Source: Squalus acanthias (taxonomy: Eukaryota). From it: a DNA stretch of 64,000 nucleotides. Positions 29,336 through 51,000 of the stretch are shown one piece after another. The notes under the pieces were generated by a model that saw nothing but the letters and a program-made list of their open reading frames with translations, was not told where the DNA came from and ran no database searches. Position numbers and translations under genes: made by a program. Each line of letters begins with the position of its first letter. The stretch's first letter is position 1. The DNA lies in the NCBI GenBank assembly GCA_030390025.1, contig CM059428.1:102672001-102736000 (forward strand), in the 5' to 3' direction.

Positions 29336-31028
29336 CACGAGCATTCGCAACCATCTTCAGCCAGAAGTGCCGAGGGAATGATCCATCTTGGTCTCCTCCT
29401 GAGGTCCCCACCATCACAGAAGCCAGTCTTCAGCCATTTCAATTCACTCCATGTGATATCAAGGAACGGTTGAACGCGCTGGATACAGCAAAGGCTATGG
29501 ACCCAAGAACATCCCGACTGTCGTGCTGAAGCCTTGTGCTCTGGAACTAGCTGCATCTCTAGCCAAGCTGTTCCAGTACAGCTACAACACTGGCATCTAC
29601 CCAATAATGTGGAAAACTGCCCAGGTATGTCCTGTCCACAAAAAGCAGGACAAATCAATCCGGCCAATTACCACCCCATCAGTCGACTCTCAATCATCAG
29701 CAAAGTGATGGAAGGTGTTGTAGACAGTGCTATCAAGCAGCACTTACTCACCAATAACCTGCTCACTGAAACTCAATTTGGGTTCCGCCAGGACCACATG
29801 GCTCTAGACCTCATTACAGCCTGGGTCCAAACATGGACAAAAAAGCTGAATTCCAGAGGTGAGATGAGAGTGACAGCCCTCAACATCAAGGCAGCATTTG
29901 ACTGAGTGTGACATCAAGGAGCCCTAGTAAATCTGAAGTCAATGGGAATCAGGGGAAAAACTCTCCACTGGCTGGAGTCATACCAAGCACAAAGGAAGAT
30001 AGTTGTGGTTGTTGGAGGCCAATCATCTCAGTCCCAGGACATCACTGCAGGAGTTCCTCAGGGCAGTGTCCTAGGCCCAATCATTTTCAGCTGCTTCATC
30101 AATGACCTTCCCTCCATCATAAGGTCAGAAGTGGGGATATTCGTTGATGATTGCACAGTGTTCAGTTCCATTCGCAACTCCTCAGATAATGAAGCAGTCC
30201 GTGCCAACCTGCAACAAGACCTAGATGACATTCAGGCTTGGGCTGATAAGTGACAAATAACATTTGCGCCACACAAGTGCCAGGCAATGACCATCTCCAA
30301 CAAGAGAGAGTCTAGTCACCTTCCCCCGACATTCAATGGGATTACCATCGCCAAATCCTCCACCATCAGCATCCTGGGGGTTACCATTGACCATAAACTT
30401 AACTGGATCAACCCATAAATACTATGGCTACAAGAGCAGGTCAGAGGCTGGGTATTCTGTAGCGAGTGACTCACCTCCTGACTCCCCAAAGCCTTTCCAC
30501 CATCTACAACGTGATGGAATACTCTCCAATTGCCTGGATGAGTGCAGCTCTAACAACACTCAAGAAGCTTGACACCATCCAGGAGAAAGCAGCCCACTAA
30601 TTGGCACCCCATCCACCACCTTAAACATTCACTCCCTCCACCACCGGCTCACCATGGCTGCAGTGTGTATCATCTACAAGATGCACTGCAGCAACTTACC
30701 AAGGCTTTTTCGACAGCACCTCCCAAACCTGTGACCTCTACCACCTAAAAGGACAAGGGCAGCAGGTGCATGGGAACGCCATCACCTGCAAGTTCCCCTC
30801 CAAGTCACACACCATCCTGACTTGGAAATATATCGCCGATCCTTCATCGTCACTGGGTCACAATCCTGGAACTCCCTCCCTAACAGCACTGTGGGAGTAC
30901 CTTCACCATATGGACTGCAGCAGTTCAAGAAGGCGGCTCACCACCACCTTCTCAAGGGCAATTAGGGATGGGCAATAAATGCTGGCCTTGCCAGCGATGC
31001 CCACATCCCATGAACGAATAAATGAAAA
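29336..31028 (+). mobile_element. 5'-truncated CR1/Jockey-group LINE (second family)
   Basis: RT motifs QFGFRQDH, GVPQGSVLGP and FVDD; A-rich tail; TSD AGCTA at 29331-29335 and 31029-31033. Closely similar to 42350-45098. Confidence 0.88.
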
Positions 31029-35798: not shown

Positions 35799-36319
35799 AG
35801 ATAAGCATGATTGTATTTATAAACAGGTTTTAATTTATTTGCTTTGTCATACCAAACAAAATTAATAACAAAAATTGTGTAAAACATCTAATGATAACAA
35901 AAAAACAGTTTAAGTCTATTAATGAACAATTATATTGAACACATTTGATTTCTGTTGCCATTCCATTTTGTGATATTGATGGTAGACTCAAACCAGCCTG
36001 AGACAGCACTAGGTGGCACTCTAAGCACAGAAATTTGAATTTAAACACAAGAGCGAGCCAAAGGGTGCAGTTATACTGCGAAACGGTTTCTGCTTTGCAG
36101 CGACACAATAGTGACTATCGATCCAACCTGACTCCAGAGTGGAGTGGTGTGAGGCCCTCTTAAACCCCTTGGGTTTGATACTGCATGCAGTATAACTCCA
36201 GTGCAGTATAAAGCGCGGTTTAAAAAGCGCTCAGTGATCGTGGAGCTTTGTACACGCACATGCCTACAGAGCTGTCTCTGGACCAGAAGAATTTGACTTG
36301 GAGCCAGACTGTATAAACA

Positions 36320-37630
36320 AGTCTGGATCCACCCAGGACTACAGATATCTCCAAGATATTCAGCGTTCCTCGAACCACTGCTCTCGCCGTATCCTGAGAT
36401 CCACGCTGAATGCCATGCGACGCCACATGAACACTCTCGACCTCTCTCTTCAGCAGCACCGACTCACTCTATCTCAAAGCTGTCCTGGTCCGCAGTTCCA
36501 TTTCATCCTTCGCCTCATCCGGCGCTTTAACAAAAAACTTTTTTTCTTCCTTTCAGGTGTCAAGGATCGCAAGCTTCAACAACTCTTGGACACCAACGCC
36601 CTTCCGGAACCTTCTTCCCCTTCACTTTCCTCTGACCCCCCTTCTCCCAATCTCACCCCCTGCCGCGTTTTCACTATCCCCTCTGACCTTCCCCTCTCTG
36701 ACCCTGAACGATCAGTCCTTAGCAAAGGCCTGAGCTTCATCCCCTTACGCCCCCACCTCAATGAATTTCGAGCTCGGCACGATGCTGAGCTCTTTTTCCG
36801 CCGCCTTCATCTCCGTGCCCACTTCTTTGGCCAGGAGTCTTCCCCCCGCACGGCTGACCCTTTCTCCCGCTTTCAGAATTCTCGTTCTACCTGGACCCCT
36901 CCCTCTGGCCTCTTACCCTCTCTAGATCTTTTCGTTGCTAACTGCCGCCGTGACATCGGCCATCTCCATTTCTCTGCTCCCCTCACTCACTCCAGCCTAC
37001 CTCCCTCTGAACTTGCAGCACTTCATTCTCTCAGATCCAACCCTGACATTGTCATTAGACCTGCTGACATGGGTGGTGCTGTTGTTGTTTGGCGAACAGA
37101 AATAGACAGTTTCCTAGAAGTAAAGGGAATTAAGGGTTACGGGGAGCGGGCAGGAATTTGGACATGAGTCTAGGTTCGGATCGGTCATGGCCCTGTGGGT
37201 AGCGTAGTGGGCCCAGGGGCCGTGTAGCCTGATCCTGCTCCTATTTCGTGTGTCCAATTCTGTTGGGTTCAGGAGATGGTTCTGTGATAGTAGATTGGCG
37301 GTTAGGATCAGATCAGCCATGATCTTATTGAATGGCGGAGCAGGCTCGAGGGGCCAATTGGCCTACTCCTGCTCTTATTTCTTATGTTCTTATGTGTTCT
37401 TATGAACCGACCTCTACCTAGCGGAAGCTGAACGCCAACTCTCCGACACCTCCTCCTACCTCCACCTGGACCATGACCCCACTACCGAACATCAAGCCAC
37501 CGTTTCCAAGACTGTCACTGACCTCATCTCCTCTGGAGATCTTCCCCCCACGGCCGCCAACCTCATAGTTCCCCAACCCCGCACAGCCCGCTTCTACCTC
37601 CACCCAAGATCCACAAACAGGACTTGCCCC
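36320..37630 (+). mobile_element. Penelope-like retroelement ORF fragment (N-terminal part of RT)
   Basis: Motifs LSDPERSVLSKGLSFIP, ELFFRRL.LRAHFF and NPDIVIRPADMGGAVVVW. After the CR1 insert it continues YLAEAERQLSDTSSY...RFYL.PKIHK. Confidence 0.85.
37098..37403 (+). mobile_element. CR1 3' end inserted in the Penelope ORF
   Basis: Reads EIDSFLEVKGIKGYG, then a 3'UTR stem-loop and (TTCTTATG)n tail; short GAAC duplication at the junctions. Confidence 0.8.
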
Positions 37631-38340
37631 ACGGAACTTACACCCCATGCCTTCTTTAAAATCCTCTTTATGTACGAAAATTAAAGTTTGAAGCCGTCAA
37701 ATCATCATTTAGGCACACCATATGAAAACTTTACGATTTTTAATGTGACTCATTCTGATGATATAAAAATGCCTTCAAAGATACAGAAAATACAGTGCTG
37801 GTCTCAATTAGAAGAATTTTAAAAATCACTTAACTAAGTTGCGATAAAACACCAGAAATATGATTATGCACTGTACCAAAAACCATATTCATGATCAAAC
37901 CCGCACTCTGCAAACTGGAGAATCACATTACATCTTCAATATCTGGTGATGTAGCAGATTGCAGAAGTTTACAGAACATAACTACTCCTTCTTGGATTTA
38001 CAAAATATTAAAAAAAACAATCCTTTATTATTCCTGCAGTAAATACCAGACCTGTAATTCCCTTAGCAAATATTGGACCCATCGCCCAAGTGCCTAGATT
38101 CGCAGCCATCATATGTGAATGTGTGAACATGCAACTTTGTGTAGGCAGCATATTTAGTATTTGATTCTTATCACATTTTATGGGCCACAGAACAAACGCA
38201 TTGTGATGACAGCAATGCAGAGTGCTCGGTAAAAACCTATGCCTTTGGCAGAGTGCTGTACATTCTCCTTCAGGCTTACAGGGCAGTGCTGTTATGAATT
38301 GTAAGGTAGCATTGTTAAATTATGCAAAGTGTGAGCACGC

Positions 38341-38600: not shown

Positions 38601-38902
38601 AAGCCTATTAGAAGTGGCCAGCAACCCTTTATGAGTTGCTGGCATTGAATATTCTGCCTCCGACCCACACATGCTCCTAGTGCCTCATGTGCTGCGGGCG
38701 CCAAAACTATAGTTAAATGAACTGAACTTGTTTCACAGTGTGAGGTCATCACAATGTGCATCAGGTGCACAGTCTCAAAATCACTGGCTCTATGCCAGGA
38801 GCACATCATCAAACCTGTGATTGTAAAAAGACAAACTTCAAAGAAATGATTAAAGAGCTTGGTCACGGACATATTAATTCAGAGCTTTTGAAAGCTGCAG
38901 AT

Positions 38903-38920
38903 TGGCGCCCAATGTGGGGC
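38903..38920 (+). promoter_or_regulatory. Retroviral primer-binding site, tRNA-Lys(CTT)
   Basis: TGGCGCCCAATGTGGGGC differs from the canonical Lys1,2 PBS TGGCGCCCAACGTGGGGC by one CpG transition, and the match ends exactly at 18 nt. Confidence 0.88.
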
Positions 38921-40201
38921 GGTAACTAAAACTAAAACCATTGATCTTTTGGTCCGACAGGATTCACACGCTCCCTATGCGCAAGTAATAGCCTGGCATG
39001 AACAGGGATGCCCTCTACCAGCACCCACCCCATGGGCAAACGCAACTGTAGTACAACATGGTGTGGATAAAAACCCTCCCCTGCTAATGGTTAAAAATAA
39101 AGAGGGAGACTTAGTAGTTTGTATTCCTCCTCAGTTGAAGGAAGAAATTCTAGCACTCTTCCATTCTCACCCGACAGCGGGACATTACTCAGCGACCATT
39201 ACACTACAAAAGTTATTACCCATTTGCTGGTGGCCTGAAATGGAGCAGCGTGTGGAACAATATGTTAATCGCTGCCTGCCATGCTTACAAACAAACCCTC
39301 CTTCATGTTCTAATCATGCCTTTCTTAGGTCACAGCCCCCTCCCAAGGGACCATGGACACACCTACAGATTGACTTTATTGGCCCGCGAACAAAATCCAA
39401 GGGTAACTACAAGTACGCGCTTGTGGTAATTGATCAGTTCACTAAATGGATCGAGGCGTTTCCCAAAAGAAACAATAAAGCGTGCACTGCTGCCCAAATT
39501 CTCCTGAGTGAGGTGTTCTGTAGGTGGGGATTACCACTACAAGTGGATAGTGATCAGGGTCCACACTTCACGGGGGCAGTTTGCACAACCCTACAAGAAA
39601 TGTTACAGATAAAACATAAATTGCACATCGCGCACCATCCACAATCATCAGGGATTGTGGAGAGGGGGAATCGAACTCTAAAAACAATGCTGCAGAAGCT
39701 GTGTACAGACACCCCACTCAGTGGACTAACATGTTGCCCTTATGTTTGATGGCAATACGTTCTACCCCACACGGGACTACGAGGGTAAGTCCATATGAGG
39801 CTATGACTGGGAGACAAATGCGGATACCAGGACATGCAACATTGGGAAATAATACACCATTAAAGTTACAACCCTGCAGCCAAAAATGGTTACAAACCTT
39901 GATAGATCATATGGACGAGGTGAACAGGCTGGTGGCCATTAACAAAGGCAAATCGCGTGAACAAATCAAGCGATATTATGATAAGAGGGTAAAACCATTT
40001 GAGTATGAGGTTGGGGACCAGGTAATGTTACAAAATTTCTCTCCAAGAAAACACTCATTCGAGGTAAAATGGACGGGCCCTCATACCATAGTAGATAAAT
40101 TAAATCCAGCTATGTATCTACTGAATGTGCCATATGGTCCGAAGGGAGAACCTAAACTGAAATGGTTCCATATCAATCAGATGAAAACTGTTAAGAATTA
40201 A
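38921..40201 (+). pseudogene. Retroviral-type integrase (HHCC, DDE and GPY/F C-terminal module), one frameshift at about 39700
   Basis: Motifs HSHPTAGH...CLPC, PWTHLQIDFIGP, VDSDQGPHFT, HHPQSSGIVERGNRTLK, SPYEAMTGR and KWTGPHTIV...WFHINQMK. Confidence 0.92.
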
Positions 40202-40234
40202 GATGTTACATTTTGGTCTACCCACAGGTTAAAG

Positions 40235-42340
40235 ATGTGGCTCTGTATACTGATATTGATGATTGGATGTGCAGCGAGCTCTACAGAGGTAACAAAATCT
40301 TTTGACTTTACCATCAACATCTGTACACTGGATCAAGGAGGTGAATGCGCTCCACTCCCCATCTATGACACGGAACCTCAAATTATTGGTGGACATAAAC
40401 AATCAAAGAACCATAGTGGTTCATCTGAGACATATGGGGGGGATGTTTCGGTTTGGATCAGAAACAGTACAAAAGATAATGTAACAACAACATATGTGAC
40501 GGGTTGTGGTACATTACAAGAAAAGGTGTATAGTTCATCAATAAGGGACGTCTCCCCACTTGGGTCACTAATAAACATTTATCAGGGCTATCCAGCTATT
40601 ACGATGATGCAGAACTATGTAAGATCAGAAGTTTGATTAGGATCCACCCCGTCAAACACTATTCTACACCTGCTACCTTGATCCAGTGTATAGATGTTGA
40701 TGGTAAAGTCAAAAGATTTTGTTACCTCTGTAGAGCTCGCTGCACATCCAATCATCAATATCAGTATGCAGAGCCACATCTTTAACCTGTGTGTATCAGG
40801 TGCGGGATAAGGGACAGCAAAGGCCCAAAGGTGTGGAAATTCCTGAAGAAAAATAATGGAATCTGGGAACAGGTACAAGAATCAAACCAGGGCCCAGTAG
40901 CTTCAGAGAGCAAGGAATAAATGCAATTATGTTGGCCTCGGTGGTGGAAGAAACACACCGGCCAGTATTCTTGTATTGGGTCAAATATTATCTCGGACCT
41001 TAAAAAGCAGAGTGATGATTGGCCTCCTATCCCCGAAGTTAATATAAAGGTTACCTCAGCAGGGAATGAACCCTTTATGACAACCTTTAAACGTTGGGGA
41101 AATTATAAGGACCCCGAGAATAAAGATAGCAGCATAGTCGAATTCAAAAATGCGATAACCGGATGTGTAAGGGAGGATGGGTATTTCTATAGCGTTAGGC
41201 TCACACCCTATGAGAAAACAAACCATTCAGAACCTCAAGAGGGAGTACTCGAGAAACAATGTCCCCACTTAAAACCGGGACCTGGGAATGGTCTTGTAAT
41301 TATCACTACCTATAAAGCAGTGTATCATCAAGTAATACCAGAAGTGGCCCCTGTTATCCTCAATTTAACAGACCTAATACTACCAAAGTGGTGCCCTGAC
41401 AAAACAGCACAATTAACTCAAAGAATGCTGCAGCAGGTTTTTACCAATACTGGGAAAAGGCGACTTTGTCGACGAGCATAGAGAAAACAGAAGGGGCCTT
41501 CCACCACGAGCTTAGTACCACTCAAGAGGAAAGCCAGGGAAAGAGTAGGCGGAGAAGAGGATTGATAAATGATGGGCTCACGGGTTTCAACACAGTAACC
41601 TCAATAGTTAACTCAATGGATTCCGCAGATTTACAGAGACAATTACAAAGGGTAAGGGAGAAATTGAAGGAGATACTCAGTAAGGAAAACAGCATAAAAA
41701 GCGAGGAGCTAAGGGAGGATCAGGTAATGACCTGTGGGACATCATACACGAGATAGAGGATCATGCCAAAAGAATTAATGATCTGATTAGAGAAAACAGA
41801 AATGCCTCTGATCAAGCAGCCCATAATGACGTATGCGTTATGTACGGGAATTGGCTGATTGAGCAAACTAGGGAAAACCTTCAGACCATCAATAAGGGGC
41901 GTCTCCCCACTTGGGTCACTAATAAACATTTATCAGGGCTATCCAGCTATTACGATGATGCAGAACTATGTAAGATCAGAAGTTTGATTAGGATCCACCC
42001 CGTCAAACACGAATGCCACAAGGTAGGGAGTCAAAAATTGTTAGGACTAATAATACAATATAAGGAGGGACATAGAAATTCCTCCTTGGATTAGGATAAT
42101 TTCCCATGTACTGGTCATCACCCAACTCGTAGTACTGATATGCTTACTATTCTACACCTGCTACCTGAGACACCTAATGTACAAATCCCGATCGCGTTTA
42201 AATATGATCACAACCCAGAATATCTTAGAGTTACATAAACGTGGGAGAACAAACCCATATGTAAGATTTTAGTTTTGAGGGGTCGGCAAAATTTTAACAA
42301 TGTTTACTAAATCCTACAGGTACACTCTGTCCTACAAGCT
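40235..42340 (+). pseudogene. Envelope-like class I fusion glycoprotein gene, rearranged and frameshifted
   Basis: Splice acceptor ...CTACCCACAG just upstream of the ATG; signal peptide MWLCILILMIGCAAS; sequons NHS, NST, NVT and NLT; furin site SRRRR|GLINDGLTGFNTVTSIVNS followed by a long heptad-rich helix and NKGRLPTWV. Confidence 0.8.
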
Positions 42341-42349
42341 TGAAGGAAT

Positions 42350-45098
42350 AAATTTGCTAAATGGGATAGATTCAGAACAGATCTAGCAGCTCAGAACTGG
42401 GCATCCATGAGGCGCTGTGGGCCATCAACAGCAGCAGAATTGTATTCCACCACAATCTGTAACCTCATGGCCCAGCACATCCTTCACTCTACCATTACCA
42501 TCAAGCCAGGGAACCAACCCTGGTTCAATAAGGAGTGTAGAAGAGCATGCCAGGAGCAGCACCAGGCGTACCTAAAAATGCAGTGCCAACCTGGAGAAGC
42601 TGCAACACAGGACGACATGAATGCTAAAAAGCGGAAGCAGTATGTTATAGACAGAACTAAGCGATCTCACAATCAACGGATCAGATCAAAGCTCTGCAGT
42701 CCTGCCACATCCAGTCATGAATGGTGGTGGATAATTAAACAACTAATGGGAGGAAGAGGCTCCATGAATATCTCCATCCTGTCGAAGTCTCGACTCCGAG
42801 TAAGACTCTGAAACAAACTGTACCGTCAGATAAACAAAGCTTTATTCTTTTACTTGCGCAAGGGGAGCGAGAGTCCAGTCAATGGCTAGGCTCACACTCC
42901 AAAGAACATTAGCGAATGCAGCATATTTATACATTAAAACAGGCAAGCGTTCCATAAATCACGTGTAATGGTATTGTATCATCTTAAACGAATTAAGAGT
43001 TTAAACAAAGACACTCAAGGTCAGCAGGACAGAAATGTCTTCAGACAAGGTAAGTTCATTATATTCTGTCAGGAGGCATTGTCTGAGTCTTGTTACCAAA
43101 AGGATGATTAACTCACGCATGTCTGATTATCATGTTTGTACAGTGGAGAACACCAGTTCCATATGATCATGTATAAAGGTAGCTAGTCAACTCTGTACAA
43201 AGCTATTTCAGTATTCAGGCAGATAAAGAGAAACAAGATTGACCTTTAACAGAATTGTTTTTCATTCTTTGGCAAGATGTCGTTATGTTAGTTGCTGGCG
43301 ACTCGACTTTTTAGTCCACAGGCAATGGTACACGATACATTAGATGTCAAGTATCCCATCATGCACTAGTAAGGGCAAAATCATATTTCCACAATCCTCA
43401 ATGATGACAGAGCCCAGCACGTGAGTGCAAAAGACGAAGCTGAAGCGTTTGCAACCATCTTCAGCCAGAAGTGCCGAGTGGATGATTCATATCGGCCTCC
43501 TCCTGAGGTCCCCAACACCACAAAAGCCAGTCTGCAGCTAATTTGATTCATTCCACATGATATCAAGAAACAGCTGAGCGCACTGGATACAACAAAGGCT
43601 GTGGGCCCCGACAACATCCCGGCTGTCGTGCTGAAGACTTGTGCTCTCTAGCCAAGCTGTTCCAGTACAGCTATAACACTGGCATCAATCTGACAATGTG
43701 GAAAACTGCCCAGGTATGTCCTGTCCACAAAAAGCAGGACAAATCCAATCCGGCCAATTACCGTCCCATCAGTCTACTCTCAATCATCAGCAAAGTGATG
43801 GAAGGTGTCGTCCATAGTGCTATCAAGCAGCACTTACTCACCAATAACCTGCTCACTGATGCCCGGTTTCGGTTCCGCCAGGACCACTCGACTCCAGACC
43901 TCATTACAGCCTTGGTCCAAACTTAGGTAAAAGAGCTGAATTCCAGAGGTGAGGTGAGAGTGGCTGCCCTTGACATCGAGGCAGTATTTGACTGAGTGTG
44001 ACATCAAGGAGCCCTAGTAAAACTGAAGTCAATGGGAACACCTAGAACAAAGGACGATGGTTGTGGTGGTTGTAGGTCAATCATCACAGCCCCAGGACAT
44101 CACTGCAGGAGTTCCTCAGGGCAGTGTCCTAGACCCAGCCATCTTCAGCTGCTTCATCAATGACCTTCCCTCTATCATAAGGTCAGAAATAGTGATATTC
44201 GCTGATGACTGCACAGTATTCAGTGCCATTCGCAACTCCTCAGATAATGAAGTAGTCTGTGCCTGCATGCAGCAAGACCTGGATGACATTCAGGCTTGGG
44301 CCGATAAGTGGCAGGTAACACTTGCGCCACACAAGTGCCAGGCAATGACTATCTCCAAGCGAGCATCTCACCACCACCCCTTGACATTCAACGGCATTAC
44401 CATTGCCAAATCCCCTACCATCAATATCCTGGGGGTCACCATTGACCAGAAACTTAACTGGTCCAGCCATATAAATACTGTGGCAACAAGAGCAGGTCAC
44501 AGGCTGGGTATTCTGTGGCGAGTGTCTCACCTCCTGACTCCACAAAGCCTTTCCACCATCTACAAGGCACAAGTCAGGAGTGTGATCGAATACTCTCCAC
44601 TTGCCTGGATGAGTGCAGCTCCAACAACACTCAAGAAGCTCGACACCATTCACGACAAAGCAGCCCGCTTGATTGGCACCCCATCCACCACCTTAAACAT
44701 TCACTCCCTCCACCATCGCCATACCATGGCTGCAGTGTGTACCATCTACAAGATGCACCACAGCAACTTGCCACGGCTTCTTCGGCAGCGCCTCACAAAC
44801 CCGTGACCTCTTCCACCGAGAAGGACAAGGGCAGCAGGCGCATGGGAACACCACCACCTCCAAGTTCCCCTCCAAGTCACACATAATCCTGACTTGAAAG
44901 TATATCGCCGATCCTTCATCGTCGCTGGGTCAAAATCCTGGAACTCCCTCCCTAACAGCACTGTGGGAGTACCTTCACCACATGGACTGCAGCGGTTCAA
45001 GGCGGCTCACCACCACCTTCTCAAGGGCAACTAGGGATGGGCAATAAATGCTGGCCTTGCCAGCGATGCCCACATCCCATGAACGAGTAAAAAAAAAG
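42350..45098 (+). mobile_element. CR1/Jockey-group LINE (same family as 29336-31028), split by a solo LTR
   Basis: Motifs QPWFNKECRRA, NPANYRPISLLS, GVPQGSVL, FADD and IYKAQVRS..EYS; poly-A tail at about 45089-45097. Confidence 0.9.
42780..43393 (-). mobile_element. Solo LTR, 614 bp
   Basis: TG...CA termini; 4-bp TSD ATCC at 42776-42779 and 43394-43397; minus-strand TATAAATA at about 42925 and AATAAA at about 42843. Confidence 0.85.
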
Positions 45099-45536: not shown

Positions 45537-46460
45537 TAAGAACATAAGAATATATAGGAGCAGGAGTAGGCCTTTCGGCCCTTCGGACCTGCTCCGCCAT
45601 TTATTAAGATGATGGCTGATCTGCTACCTCAACTCCACATTCCCTCACTATCCCCATATCCCTTGATTCCCTTAATATCCCAAAATCTATCGATCTCTGT
45701 CTTGAATATACTCAATGGCTGAGCATCCACAGCCCTCTGGGGTAGAGAATTCCAAAGATTCACAAACCTTTGAGTGAAAAAATTTCTCCTCATCTCAGTC
45801 CTAAATGACTCCAAGTTCTAGACTCCCCAGCCAGAGGAAACATCCTCCCAGCATCTACCCTGTTAATCCCCTTAAGAATTTTATATGTTTCAATGAGATC
45901 ACCTCTCATTCTTTTAAACTCTAGAGAATATAGGCCTAGTCTACTCAATCTCTCCTCTTGAGACAATCCCCTCATCCCAGGAATCCCTCTAAGGCAAGTA
46001 TATCCTTCCTTAGGTGAGGAGATCAAAACTGTACACAGTACTCCAGTTGTGGTCTCACCAAGCTCCTATATAATTGTAGTAAGATTTCTTTACTCTTATA
46101 TGCTCAAACACCCTCTTTACTCAAAACCCTTTGTAATAAAGGCCAACATACCATTTGCTTTCCTAATCGCTTGCTGTACCTGCATGTTAACTTTCTGTGA
46201 TTCATGTACAAGGACACCCAGGTCTCTCTGAATACCAACATTTCCCAGTCTCACCATTTAAAAAATATTCTGCTTTTCAATTTTTCCTACCAAAGTGGAT
46301 GACTTCACATTTCTCCACATTATATTCCATCTCCCATGTCCTTGCCCAATCACTTAACCTGTCTAAATCCCTTTGCAGCCTCCTTGCATCATCCTCACAG
46401 CTTACTTTCCCACCTAACTTTGTATCATCAGTAAACTTGGATACATTAGACTCGGTCCCC
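45537..46460 (-). mobile_element. CR1 LINE 3' fragment
   Basis: Motifs RMRGDLIETYKIL and FFTQRFVNLWNSLP; (TTCTTATG) tail at the left end. Confidence 0.88.
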
Positions 46461-48030
46461 TTTTGCCATACCCATCAGGAAAGAGCCAGTGATGAAGTAC
46501 CTGTGAGAAGTATTGAGCAAATGTTTGGAGCAATAATCAAAATTGTTGGGCACTGATGGCAGGGAGCCCCAGAAGAGAGTGCTGCAAACCATTTAGAGGA
46601 AGGTGGCAGAGGCAGTCAGTGCTACCTAACAACCCGAAGAGCTTCCCCACAGTGCAGGAGGAGATTCAATGACCTCACAAGTGTAGATATGGTATACCGG
46701 GGCTCTCTTGACAATATATATCTTCTACCACTCAGACAGCCTTCATTAAAGAAAGAAAGGAAAGAAAGACTTGCATTTATTCATTCAGCTAATACACTTT
46801 CTCTCTCAGCATCTGAGGGTCAAGGGAACTCACTTGTGGAAAGTGTAACTTCTGCAAACACTCAAACACCCTCTTTACTCAAAACCACTCTGCTAACTCA
46901 CTTTGCCTGCCAGAAAGGCTACAGTTAGTCTTCAAGGACACTTAATTTAAATGGCCAATGCATCTCCTCATCATGGGATGCACACACTTATATGGGAGAA
47001 AGTGTTTTTTCACTCACATGCCCTTAACATTGCCTTCTCTCCCTCCAAAGTAAAAGATGATCTACAACCAGCCTGAAAGAAATACAACTGAGGGCGGAGC
47101 AGCTGTGCAGAAAACACTAAGTGCACAAGAAGAGGAGGCTGCACTTCATGGACAGGCAGACACAAGAAACTGTGCAAGAGGCCAAGGTTGGAGGCGAGGT
47201 GGCAACAGTAGGTTGGTAAAAGTGGGAAATACACACCATCGGTAGTCTCAGTTTTAAGTGCTTCCTCAAAGTATTGCCATGCCCTTGCCCACAACAACAA
47301 TTTCTTCAAGGGGGAATGTCACTGTGTGACAACTAAACAAGCTCCTCTGTGTTTCACATCATAGGTGGTGCCTTGCAGGAAGAGGCTGCCAACAATGAAG
47401 ATCACACAGTACTTCCACTGGGAATTAGTTGCTGAAACTACAGCTGCCTTTCTTCATTGTGATATTATGAATCTTCAGACGCTCACTGGGCTGTATTGCG
47501 GAGCTCCACCAGATTTATCCAGGCACCTAAAATGAGACTTGAGAATTTCTATAGTCTGCTCTATGTCTTGTAGTGTCATGGGCCTCATTGTATCTGTTGT
47601 ACCCCTCTCTCTGTGGAACCCTTACTGGAATCATCAGCCAAACCTGCAGGGGATATTCCTAATCACCAATCAGGAAACCAAATACGTTGAACAGAATTAG
47701 AAGGGCTCACATGATGGATTATTGCATGATGAAAGCACCATGGGATCTTCCTGGTATCTGGCAGTCATGTGAAGGAAAAGGTGATTAATATCACACGTGA
47801 GCTGGACATTTATAGAATGAAAGCCTTTACTATTCATTAATTGAAGGAATTGTCATACGGAGCTTTGAGTGTCACAAGAATTTTATCCATTGCTCCTTGC
47901 ATCTGTCTGAATCCTGCCAGGCTGTAGAAGCATAGAAACATAGAAACATAGAAGATAGGAGCAGGAGTAGGCCATTCGGCCCCTCGAGCCTGCACGGCCA
48001 TTCGATGAGATCATGGCTGATCATCTAAAC

Positions 48031-51000
48031 TCAGTACCCTGTACCTGCCTTCTCCCCATATCCCTTGATACCTTTAGCTTTAAGAAATATATCTAACTCA
48101 ACCTTGAATATATTTAATGACTTCACCTCAACTACCTTCTGTGGTAGAGAATTCCACAGGTTCACCACTCTCTGGGTGAAGAAATTCTTCCTCATTTCTG
48201 TCCTAAATGGTTTACCCGTTATCCGTAGATTATGACCCCTGGTTCTGCACTCTCCGACCATCAGGAACATTCTTCCTGCATCTAGTTTGTCCAGACCTGT
48301 CAGAATTTTATATGTTTCGATGAGATCCCCTCTCATTCTTCTATACTCCAGTGAGTAAAAGCCCAATCGACCCAATCTCTCCTCATATGTCATTCCTGCC
48401 ATCCCAGGTATCAGCCTTGTGAATCTTCGCTGAACTCCTTCCATGGCAAGAACATCCTTCCTCAGATAAGGTGACCAAAACTGCACACAGTACTCAAGGT
48501 GTGGTCTCACCAAGGCCCTGTACAACTGCAGCAGGACATCCCTGTTCCTATACTTAAACCCTTTCGCTATGAAGGCCAACATACCATTTGCCTTCTTCAC
48601 CACCTGCTGCACCTGCATGCTTACTTTCAGCGACTGGTGCACAAGGACACCCAGGTCTCGTTGCACTTCCCCTTCTCCCAATCTATTGCCATTCAGATAA
48701 TAGTCTGCCTTTCTGTTTTTGACACCAAAGTGGATAACCTCGCACTTATCCACGTTATATTGCATCTGCCACGCTTCTGCCCACTCACCCAACCTGTCCA
48801 GATCATCCTGGAGTTTCTCGGTATCCTCCTCGCAGCACACACTCCCACCCAGCTTTGTGTCATCTGCAAACTTGGAGATATTACATTTAATTCCCTTATC
48901 TAGATCATGAATGTATATTGTGAATAGCTGGGGTCCAAGGACCGATCCCTGCGGTACCCCACTAGTCACTGCTTGCCACTTGGAAAAAGACCCATTAATT
49001 CCTACTCTCTGCTTTCTGTCCGCCAACCAGTTCTCTATTCAAGTCAATACCTTGCCCCCAATCCCATGTGCCTTAACTTTACCTGCTAATCTCTTATGTG
49101 GGACCTTATCGAAAGCCTTTTGAAAGTCCAAATACACCACATCTACTGGTTCTCCCTTATCTATTTTCCCAGTTACATCCTCAAAAAATTCCAGTAGATT
49201 AGTCAAGCACGATTTACCTTTTGTAAATCCATGTTGACTTTGTCCGATTCTGTCACTGTTTTTCAAATCCTCAGCTATTACATCCTTTATAATGGACTCT
49301 AGCATTTTCCCCACTACCAATGTCAGGCTTACCGGTCTGTAATTCCCTGCTTTCTCTCGACCACCCTTTTTGAATAGTGGGGTAACATTAGCTACTCTCC
49401 AATCCATGGGTACAGTTCCAGATTCCATCGAATGTTGGAAGATGATCAGCAATGCATCTACTATTTCTAGGGCCACTTCCTTAATTACCCTAGGATGTAG
49501 ATTATCAGGCCCTGGGGATTTATCGGCCTTCAATACCGTCAATTTCCCTAACACCATTTCCCTGCAAATACTGATTTCTTTCAGTTCCTCCCTTTCATCA
49601 GACCGTATGTTCTCCAACATCTCTGGGAGCTTATTTGTGTCCTCCTTTGTGAAGACAGAACCAAAATATGCATTTAATTGGGCTGCCATTTCTTTGTTCC
49701 CCATTATAACTTCCCCCGCTTCTGACTGCAAGGGACCTACACTTGATTTCACTAATCTTTTTCTCTTCACATATCTATAAAAGCTCTTACAGTCAGTTTT
49801 TATGTTCCCAGCAAGCTTACTTTCATATTCTATTTTCCCCTTCTTATTAATCCCTTTGTCCTCCTTTGTTGAATCCTAAACTGCTCCCAATCCTCAGGGC
49901 TACCGCTTTTTCTGGCCAATTTATATGCACTCTCCTTGGATCTTATGCTATCCCTAATTTCCCTTGTTAGCCACGGTTGAGTCACCCTTTTTGTTTTATT
50001 CTTATGCCACACTGGGATGTACAAATTCTGTAGTTCATCCATGCAGTCTTTGAATGTTTGCCATTGCCTATCCACAGTCAACCCCTTGAGTGACATTCCC
50101 CAATCAATCCTACCCAATTTGCGCCTCATACCATCGTAGTTTCCTTTATTTAAATTCAGGACCCTAGTCTCTGATTCAACTACTTCACTCTCCATCCTAA
50201 TGAAGAATTCTATCATATTATGATCGCTCTGACCCAAGGGGCCTCGTACAACAAGATTGCTAATTAATCCTTTCTCGTTACATAATACCCAGTCTAAGAT
50301 GGCCTGATCTCTGGTTGGTTCCTCGACATATTGTTCCAGAAAACCATCTCGTAAACATTCTAGGAATTCCTCCTCCATAGTATTTTTACTAATTTGGTTA
50401 GCCCAATCTATATGTAAATTAAAGTCACCCATGATGACTGCTGTGCCCTTACTGCATGCTTCTCTAATTTCCCTTTTAATGCCATCCCCAACCTCCGTAT
50501 TACTGTTTGGAGGTCTATATACCACTCCCACTAACGTTTTCTGCCCCTTGTTATTTCTCAGTTCTACCCATACAGATTCCGCATCATCAGAGCTAATATC
50601 CTTCCTTTCAATTTTGTTAATCCCCTCTTTAACCAGCAATGCTACCCCACCTCCCTTTCCTTTTTGCCTATCTTTCCTAAATATTGAATAACCCTGGATG
50701 TTGAGTTCCCAGCCTTGGCCACCCTGGAGCCATGTTTCTGTAATCCCAATCAAATCGTATTCATTTACCTCTATTTGCGCAGCTAATTCATCCACCTTGT
50801 TCCGAATGCTCCTTGCATTAAGACACAAGGGTAAAAATTGAGTCGCGCCCCATTTGGGGCGCTAACCTCGCCGGGGCGCAACTTTTAGCGCCCCGAAAAA
50901 ATTAGCGGCCCCGCGCCGGAACTTCAGTGGTTGCGCCCCAAGAGGGAAGCGGGGCGCCACTGGAAGCACCCCGCATCCCTCTTGGGGCGCTGCGAGTGAA

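Follow-up and report, generated by a model that had tools for sequence, protein, structure and literature searches.

A dead, rearranged endogenous retrovirus in a Squalus acanthias window and its many-copy family with a predicted F-type envelope

Introduction

The envelope protein (Env) of lokiretroviruses resembles the fusion protein (F) of Mononegavirales, and these viruses have been reported from five vertebrate classes, cartilaginous fish not being among them, with none found in the three orectolobiform genomes screened (Wang and Han, PMC7947760). The same paper leaves open four scenarios for the origin of retroviral Env. Foamy virus Env has the fold of paramyxovirus/pneumovirus F (PMC11468914), and among invertebrates many Gypsy elements carry an F-type env (bioRxiv 2023.10.26.564294). 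The FLERVs of shark and frog, which are reported to cluster, are described from pol only, env never having been found (PMC5512871). In the elephant shark, CmiERV lineage I was reported to cluster with snakehead retrovirus (SnRV) (Han 2015, PMC4422223). Here we analyze a stretch of 64,000 nucleotides from Squalus acanthias (GenBank assembly GCA_030390025.1, contig CM059428.1, positions 102,672,001 to 102,736,000 of the forward strand; hereafter the window), in which an endogenous retrovirus (ERV) with an envelope gene (env) is found at positions 38903–42340.

An initial annotation, made from the letters alone, described this element as a retroviral relic with a non-gamma class I fusion env in a probable shark genome, placed it with lokiretroviruses or an otherwise undescribed lineage, and suggested structure prediction of env, an integrase tree and a genome search for fuller copies. 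Our analysis makes it quite probable that the element is a dead, rearranged copy of a many-copy ERV family whose Pol belongs with the retroviruses proper, apart from the loki-like elements, and whose Env is predicted to have an F-type fold.

Results

Placement of the polymerase and integrase

The suggested genome search returned fuller copies of the family with reverse transcriptase (RT) and long terminal repeats (LTRs). Three RT-based trees were calculated, one for RT (81 rows), one for RT plus connection (47 rows) and one under a mixture model with 31 of those 47 rows; three long-branch RT rows from the genome (L092, L094 and L098), probably off-frame tails, were removed after the first RT tree. 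In all three trees, the loki-like rows formed a clade of their own, sister to the clade that holds the window family. This non-loki retrovirus clade was supported at 99/98, 100/98 and 100/99, the last value being from the mixture model. In the approximately unbiased (AU) test on 411 RT plus connection columns, forcing the family together with loki was rejected (p 0.0017), as was the same constraint on the wider clade (p 0.0126). In the integrase tree, which contained no spuma rows, the window integrase fell into a 100/99 clade with the family, its sister families and proteins from Xenopus and sawshark, and the loki-like integrases formed a 100/100 clade without it; the deeper branching order was weak. 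By the defining tests, the family is not a lokiretrovirus, and the membership that had been proposed for it is not supported; the family grouped instead with elements of frogs, coelacanth and other sharks. The sawshark protein nested among the in-genome sister families, which, together with the genome size of 3.7 Gb, makes a cartilaginous fish the probable host, in line with the shark suspected at the outset. In the same tree, the mammalian NYNRIN integrases, on a long branch, grouped with members of the wider clade from frogs and coelacanth (96/95) and not with the loki-like ones.

The nearest named Pol sequences were from Xenopus tropicalis (50–59% identity) and from sawshark, frogs and coelacanth, among them A0A803JYW4 and XP_073459965, most of them annotated as NYNRIN-like; a search of viral contigs with the RT returned no match. 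The SnRV-matching protein was placed away from the window family (97/97, 97/94) or had no resolved position, depending on the tree, and the sampled gamma-env elements of the genome grouped elsewhere, with SnRV and the epsilon and gamma viruses. In a hand translation of elephant-shark CmiERV scaffold 2, the first part of RT was identical to the family in 38 of 56 residues, and the env of this scaffold, read by eye, has both the ISD and CX6CC motifs. The combination of a close Pol with a gamma-type env points to env exchange inside the clade. The lineage is thus undescribed only in part: its Pol appears to be known from CmiERV lineage I and X. tropicalis, whereas the F-type Env on it seems unreported, as we found no paper on this combination, although Repbase and supplements that we did not see may hold one and a preprint announces that vertebrates will be treated in a follow-up. 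Assignment to Ty3/Gypsy (Metaviridae) was considered and rejected, as the family has a second RNase H and its RT does not fall among Gypsy elements.

Envelope sequence and predicted fold

Most of the ectodomain is missing from the window, which alone could therefore not show the absence of CX6CC, so the envs of other copies were used, in two long natural frames of 633 and 663 residues. Neither CX6CC nor ISD/QNR was present in either frame in a motif search that recovered CX6CC and ISD in 20/20 in-genome TLV_coat loci as a control. The absence of these motifs that had been read from the window is borne out by these frames, and a gamma-type env was rejected on the same ground.

The sequence searches gave weak but concordant indications of F. 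The first match in an Atlas search with env was the PF00523 cluster (0.94; shuffles reach 0.9 in 4–10 of 100). When a 39-row env profile was compared with the PDB, the top four of seven matches were hPIV3-type parainfluenza F chains (E 0.13–0.19), and a second env alignment found parainfluenza F chains at E 0.23–0.34. Fusion_gly was the most frequent Pfam family among 39 env members (5/39), with a best E of 0.0055, short of the curated cut-off.

The single-sequence fold of env had a predicted local distance difference test (pLDDT) score of 37.5 and was set aside. The model of the natural 663-residue frame of a sister copy, calculated with a 43-row alignment, had a mean pLDDT of 58.8, with values of 70–92 in the F2-like and cysteine-rich cores and below 50 in the N-terminal region, the fusion peptide and the C-terminal linker. 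All 39 rows listed by Foldseek against the PDB were paramyxo-/pneumovirus F structures (best E 6.6e-11). Matches in BFVD comprised lispi/arlivirus glycoproteins, baculovirus F and paramyxovirus F, together with retroviral proteins, namely walleye epsilonretrovirus Env (E 5e-7 and 9e-7) and feline foamy Env (E 4e-6). The two walleye matches are the predicted Envs of WEHV-1 (E 5e-7) and walleye dermal sarcoma virus (E 9e-7), and the best BFVD match was an unnamed 928-residue viral protein (A0A384ZVF2, E 6e-16). We conclude with moderate confidence that the family Env is predicted to fold like paramyxo-/pneumovirus F. The profile, Pfam and Foldseek results thus uphold the description of a retroviral relic with a non-gamma class I fusion env. 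The accompanying premise that lokiretroviruses are the sole bearers of F-like env was incomplete, as foamy Env (PMC11468914) and the predicted walleye Envs match as well.

The N-terminal region of the sister-copy Env was modeled as all-beta at pLDDT 34–58 and gave a Pfam match to the immunoglobulin (Ig) family Ig_3 (E 0.081); neuroplastin was matched at E 0.25. The two window pieces of this region alone scored nothing in Pfam.

The family in the genome

An 801-base env probe returned 40 scored matches at 88–100% identity among 137 candidates, and with an RT probe more than 50 of 150 scored rows were at least 76% identical, with many sister families at 58–68%. The fuller copies are arranged as LTR, primer-binding site (PBS) for tRNA-Lys, gag, protease, RT, tether, RNase H, integrase, env and LTR; the copy that served as the map is interrupted by stops and frameshifts as well. 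Their LTRs are ~790 bp long with TG..CA ends and are flanked by 4-bp target duplications, which were read from the flanks in 3/3 copies with both ends resolved. Gag contains one CCHC knuckle (zf-CCHC E 1.2e-7), RT has the YVDD and LPQGF motifs, and the tether and second RNase H (RT_RNaseH_2 E 7e-20, RNase_H E 6e-17) are present in the fuller copy and absent from the window copy. The PBS varies among subfamilies, as L172 (G000:C11) has another Lys-type site, which we take to be Lys3-like, than L033, L035 and L180.

LTR pairs were 97.6, 96.5 and 94.5% identical over 650–800 bases. This corresponds to ages of 24–55 million years at a rate of 0.5e-9, assumed in PMC10699275, and of 55–125 million years at 2.2e-10, assumed in PMC4422223. 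The ratio of nonsynonymous to synonymous substitution rates (dN/dS) between subfamilies was 0.21–0.34 for env in 7/7 comparisons (four copies, no significance test; three loci had no env overlap) and 0.12–0.16 for pol. Between close copies, env dN/dS was 0.31–0.91, as decay after insertion predicts. Env was therefore under purifying selection, which points to spread by infection. Contigs of runs X6, X8, X10 and X11, from four other organisms, cover 30/30 bins of the env stretch at 85–100% likeness, so the family occurs under more than one species label.

Related families with F-type env

Within the genome, homologous env occurs in several other families of the same Pol clade at 24–37% identity, and F-type env is found across several deeply diverged families of the clade at 24–46%. 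One of them (L131–L163, e.g. G000:C3:117906902) is very young: 144/144 scored matches were at 99–100% identity and most have open frames of 800 codons or more. Its env is homologous to that of the window family (37%), its Pol is 48–56% identical, and its Ig-like motif is clearer (Ig_3 E 0.04). The two genes of the window family show opposite trends, with env 37% identical to the young family versus 24–28% to its Pol sisters and Pol 48% identical to the young family versus 61% to the Pol sisters. In a sister family (L072, L074, L075, L078, L080, L082 and L083), many copies keep pol and only the last ~90 env codons, which shows env-less spread. In three further loci (L121, L123 and L127), which may be cases of nesting or recombinants, a partial integrase and a gamma-type env are preceded by the 3' end of an F-type env.

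Layout and damage of the window copy

The window copy (38903–42340) is a dead, rearranged provirus with a tRNA-Lys primer site, an integrase and env. Its features are on the plus strand, apart from a templated insertion without assigned strand and an inverted LTR start. On the 5' side, the U5 end of the LTR remains as a stretch of ~39 bases (38862–38900) that matches the LTR ends of fuller copies at 83–95%, the remainder being absent. The PBS (38903–38920) is identical to the 3' end of the host tRNA-Lys(CTT) at 17/18 positions; the motif used for this match is what we take to be the tRNA 3' end, and two of three fetched loci that contain it were called as tRNA-Lys alone, the third also containing tRNA-Lys. 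The 3' end of the PBS is a deletion junction with short G-rich microhomology, and the RNase H/integrase linker follows the PBS immediately. There are 4705 bases fewer than in the fuller copy, and gag, pro, RT, tether and RNase H were lost in this ~4.7-kb deletion. The pol end with linker and integrase (38916–40201), identified by Pfam, tblastn and the tree, has one frameshift near 39720–39750. It comprises Integrase_H2C2 (39123–39299, E 3e-17), the DDE core (rve, 39351–39641, E 9e-15) and a GPY/F-type tail (WTGPH, 40070) with weak scores (SH3_Tf2-1 E 0.096, MLVIN_C E 0.13). A putative splice acceptor, recognized by sequence match, lies at 40211–40227, with AG at 40226–7, seven bases ahead of the env start codon. 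Its text is identical in 18/20 loci searched, the AG having been required by the search and several loci being one copy. No splice joint was found in the family-env contigs of two read runs that were guessed, not shown, to be RNA.

The 5' part of env (40235–40535) contains a signal-peptide-like start (40235, hydropathy 1.81) and the N-terminal region. It is followed by the 252-bp templated insertion (40536–40795), which self-comparison resolves into three pieces: a direct copy of downstream env 41887–42010 at 40536–40659 (124 bp), a direct copy of downstream env 42146–42166 at 40658–40678 (21 bp) and an inverted copy of the signal-peptide region 40219–40338 at 40676–40795 (120 bp). Other copies carry 22 bases at this site, and the insertion is missing from contigs of runs X2 and X17. 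A weak candidate for an Ig-like domain ahead of the fusion core (40789–40980) is interrupted by a stop at 40918–40920. The F2-like part of the core (41275–41546), with the GPGNGL motif, the PVILNL strand and a long helix, has a frameshift near 41443, and is followed by an RRRR furin-type site (41547–41558) and a fusion-peptide-like stretch, which together occupy 41547–41615. The heptad region and the start of the F1-like core (41616–42058) are frameshifted near 41730. At the env deletion junction (42059–42069) most of the cysteine-rich ectodomain is gone, 679 bases of another copy being replaced by 11. The membrane anchor and tail (42070–42292) include a transmembrane stretch at ~42096–42152 (hydropathy 2.68), and the copy ends in ~44 bases of an inverted LTR start on the minus strand (42293–42336), the polypurine tract (PPT) and the rest of the 3' LTR being absent. 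Pfam assigned no family to the env-like frames of the window.

The initial annotation had thus correctly read the tRNA-Lys PBS, the integrase with its GPY/F tail, the env landmarks from the signal-peptide-like start to the fusion-peptide-like stretch, and the heptads across the frameshift. The splice acceptor that it listed is present as an AG, but no spliced RNA was seen.

Four of the five junctions of the window copy, including that at the PBS, were found in 0/56 other loci checked. The env-deletion junction resembles one in four tandem copies on contig C8 (L005, L007, L008 and L011; G000:C8:127438322-127453200), which lie ~3.7 kb apart and share the deletion, so copying of the deleted variant either preceded the window insertion or was independent of it. 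The junctions show short overlaps, which point to template switching in reverse transcription or to repair. An assembly artefact at the private junctions is unlikely, as a contig of run X1 corresponds to 38700–38945 without a difference, with only 25–29 bases extending beyond the PBS junction, fewer than the bridging criterion requires. The window copy itself encodes nothing functional and mainly marks the family; since it is broken and multi-copy, a co-opted host gene was rejected. The flanks (29340–31028, 36238–37684, 42344–45097 and 45550–50861) contain what are, by their translated frames, presumably LINE-like and Penelope-like repeats.

Discussion

Origin of the envelope

Several observations weigh against our interpretation. 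For env, there was no sequence match at a curated threshold, no homologue was found in a large protein set, and a single-sequence search of the PDB gave no match. The Env model is moderate (predicted template modeling score 0.48; 301/663 residues with pLDDT below 50), was built on a sister copy and not on the window copy, and its alignments have TM-scores of 0.33–0.5 with a root-mean-square deviation of ~30 Å. The putative N-terminal Ig-like domain is a weak lead and not a result, and splicing and furin cleavage of env are predicted from sequence. In the trees, the loki, SnRV and walleye epsilon-like Pol references were picked by eye via published motifs and not by name, and raw RT plus connection identity is the same (36–37%) to loki-like, SnRV and gamma-env elements. 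The in-genome F-env families all fall in one clade with moderate support (88–89/95–97). No foamy, FLERV or ERV-L sequence was included, and among solved structures the RT matches foamy Pol best (E 4.5e-44, compared with 1e-25 for murine leukemia virus), so the exact place of the family among basal retroviruses is tentative.

The F-like env, the tether plus RNase H and an integrase of the broad loki/NYNRIN type would fit a genuine but divergent lokiretrovirus, which would be the first to come from cartilaginous fish, and the AU test on RT alone, which used a quick tree and 65 of the 81 rows, did not reject that grouping (p 0.084). Nevertheless, this origin is very improbable given its exclusion by the three RT-based trees, the integrase tree and the AU tests on 411 columns, the LPQGF motif in RT in place of CPFGY in the loki-like rows, and the long N-terminal extension of Env, which the loki Env entries that could be compared (8 of 23) lack (PMC7947760). 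A basal foamy-related virus of the shark/frog FLERV clade, with an env that is simply foamy-type, would agree with foamy Pol as the best match of the RT, with the nearest named Pol coming from X. tropicalis, with the feline foamy Env match of the model, and with the Lys PBS and 4-bp target duplication that fish FLERVs have as well; the shark and Xenopus FLERVs, which cluster, also lack a described env (PMC5512871). We regard it as improbable, though less so than a lokiretrovirus, and the family is probably not foamy: gag has a CCHC knuckle, reported missing in foamy-like fish ERVs, the fuller copy has no accessory region between env and the LTR (the env frame ends 9 bases ahead of it), and GGGTG, a foamy-type mark at the PPT/LTR border, is not present in the fuller copies. 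Moreover, the extra domain precedes the F core instead of lying between F2 and F1 (PMC11468914), and by eye the RT is nearer CmiERV lineage I and SnRV than ZFERV-2/AciFLERV.

A stronger competitor, although still unlikely on balance, is a chimera, in which a basal retrovirus captured an F-type env from a lokiretrovirus (or a mononegavirus, a baculovirus or an env-bearing Gypsy element) and acquired the N-terminal domain afterwards, the gamma-type Env seen in CmiERV-1 being the older state of the clade. The ordered landmarks that the env core shares by eye with published loki Envs (PMC7947760) are compatible with such a capture. Env swaps do occur in the clade, as CmiERV scaffold 2 illustrates by eye, and the opposite trends of env and Pol toward the young family speak in the same direction. 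With lokiretroviruses found in none of the three orectolobiform genomes screened (PMC7947760), the donor would have to be outside sharks or extinct. The presence of F-type env in several deeply diverged families of the genome points to long residence, and with F-like Envs in foamy viruses and among the walleye matches repeated capture would need several events. In the reading that we favor, the F-type Env most likely goes far back in retroviruses and was retained in this basal clade, which shares it with loki and foamy viruses; the gamma-type Env of the elephant-shark relative would be the replacement. The wider proposal, that a basal retrovirus lineage, a third or fourth major one, abundant in cartilaginous fish, keeps an ancestral F-type Env with an Ig-like binding head, is a tentative one whose chances we place somewhat short of even.

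Proposed history and significance

The ancestral virus would have primed reverse transcription with tRNA-Lys and expressed env from a spliced RNA. Its Env would have been made as a trimer in precursor form. Furin would have cleaved it at R-x-R/K-R and so exposed the fusion peptide, and the heptads would have refolded to a six-helix bundle as in F. Binding to the cell was likely the task of the additional N-terminal domain, probably Ig-like, in which case a separate attachment protein would not be needed. Reinfection of the germ line, tens of millions of years in the past, is the likely route by which the family spread, and the junctions of the window copy likely arose from template switching or repair.

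An F-type Env on a Pol that is neither loki- nor foamy-like, present in several old families and under purifying selection, favors such an Env in the common ancestor, and the origin question becomes testable through an Env-versus-Pol tree. If this is true, then together with loki, foamy and possibly walleye Envs it would make the F type the original state, with the gamma-type and lentiviral Envs as later replacements, one gamma-type replacement (CmiERV-1) being caught within the clade itself. These results also hint at an envelope type that is probably ancient and broadly distributed in retroviruses. This env class is missed by Pfam-based ERV annotation, and the lack of a curated Pfam hit may explain the 'pol-only' reports for shark and frog elements.

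Comparison with known systems

Lokiretroviruses and the window family both have an F-like Env with signal peptide, furin site, fusion peptide, heptads and anchor, both have a tether plus second RNase H, and their integrases are of a broadly similar type. Their Env cores share ordered landmarks, as judged by eye for 8 of 23 published entries (PMC7947760). Among the same entries, the window-family Env is N-terminally longer by ~200–250 residues. The family further differs in its RT and integrase, which fall outside the loki-like clade, in the LPQGF motif that it has in common with retroviruses proper, whereas the loki-like rows have CPFGY, and in its host class, from which no lokiretrovirus was reported.

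CmiERV lineage I is similar to the window family in Pol (by eye), a gag with one CCHC knuckle, the integrase end and a simple genome of ~10 kb (PMC4422223). CmiERV scaffold 2 departs from the window family in its env, which is gamma-type (ISD, CX6CC), and in its PBS. SnRV itself stands apart from the window family in our trees, unlike the clustering reported for CmiERV lineage I. The CmiERV scaffold 2 PBS is presumably Leu-type.

Foamy viruses and the window family both place a retroviral Env on an F scaffold with an added binding module. In foamy Env, the receptor-binding domain lies between the two subunits, whereas the probable Ig-like domain of the window family is N-terminal (PMC11468914). 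The gag and genome layout of the family are unlike those of foamy viruses, and its single gag knuckle differs from the foamy-like fish ERVs, which were reported without one. With paramyxo-/pneumovirus F (PF00523; PDB 1ZTM and 3RKI), sequence identity is 10–14%, and the window-family Env differs in its N-terminal extension and in being encoded by an LTR element. There is weak profile similarity in the cysteine-rich region, and the predicted fold and the order of domains are the same in both.

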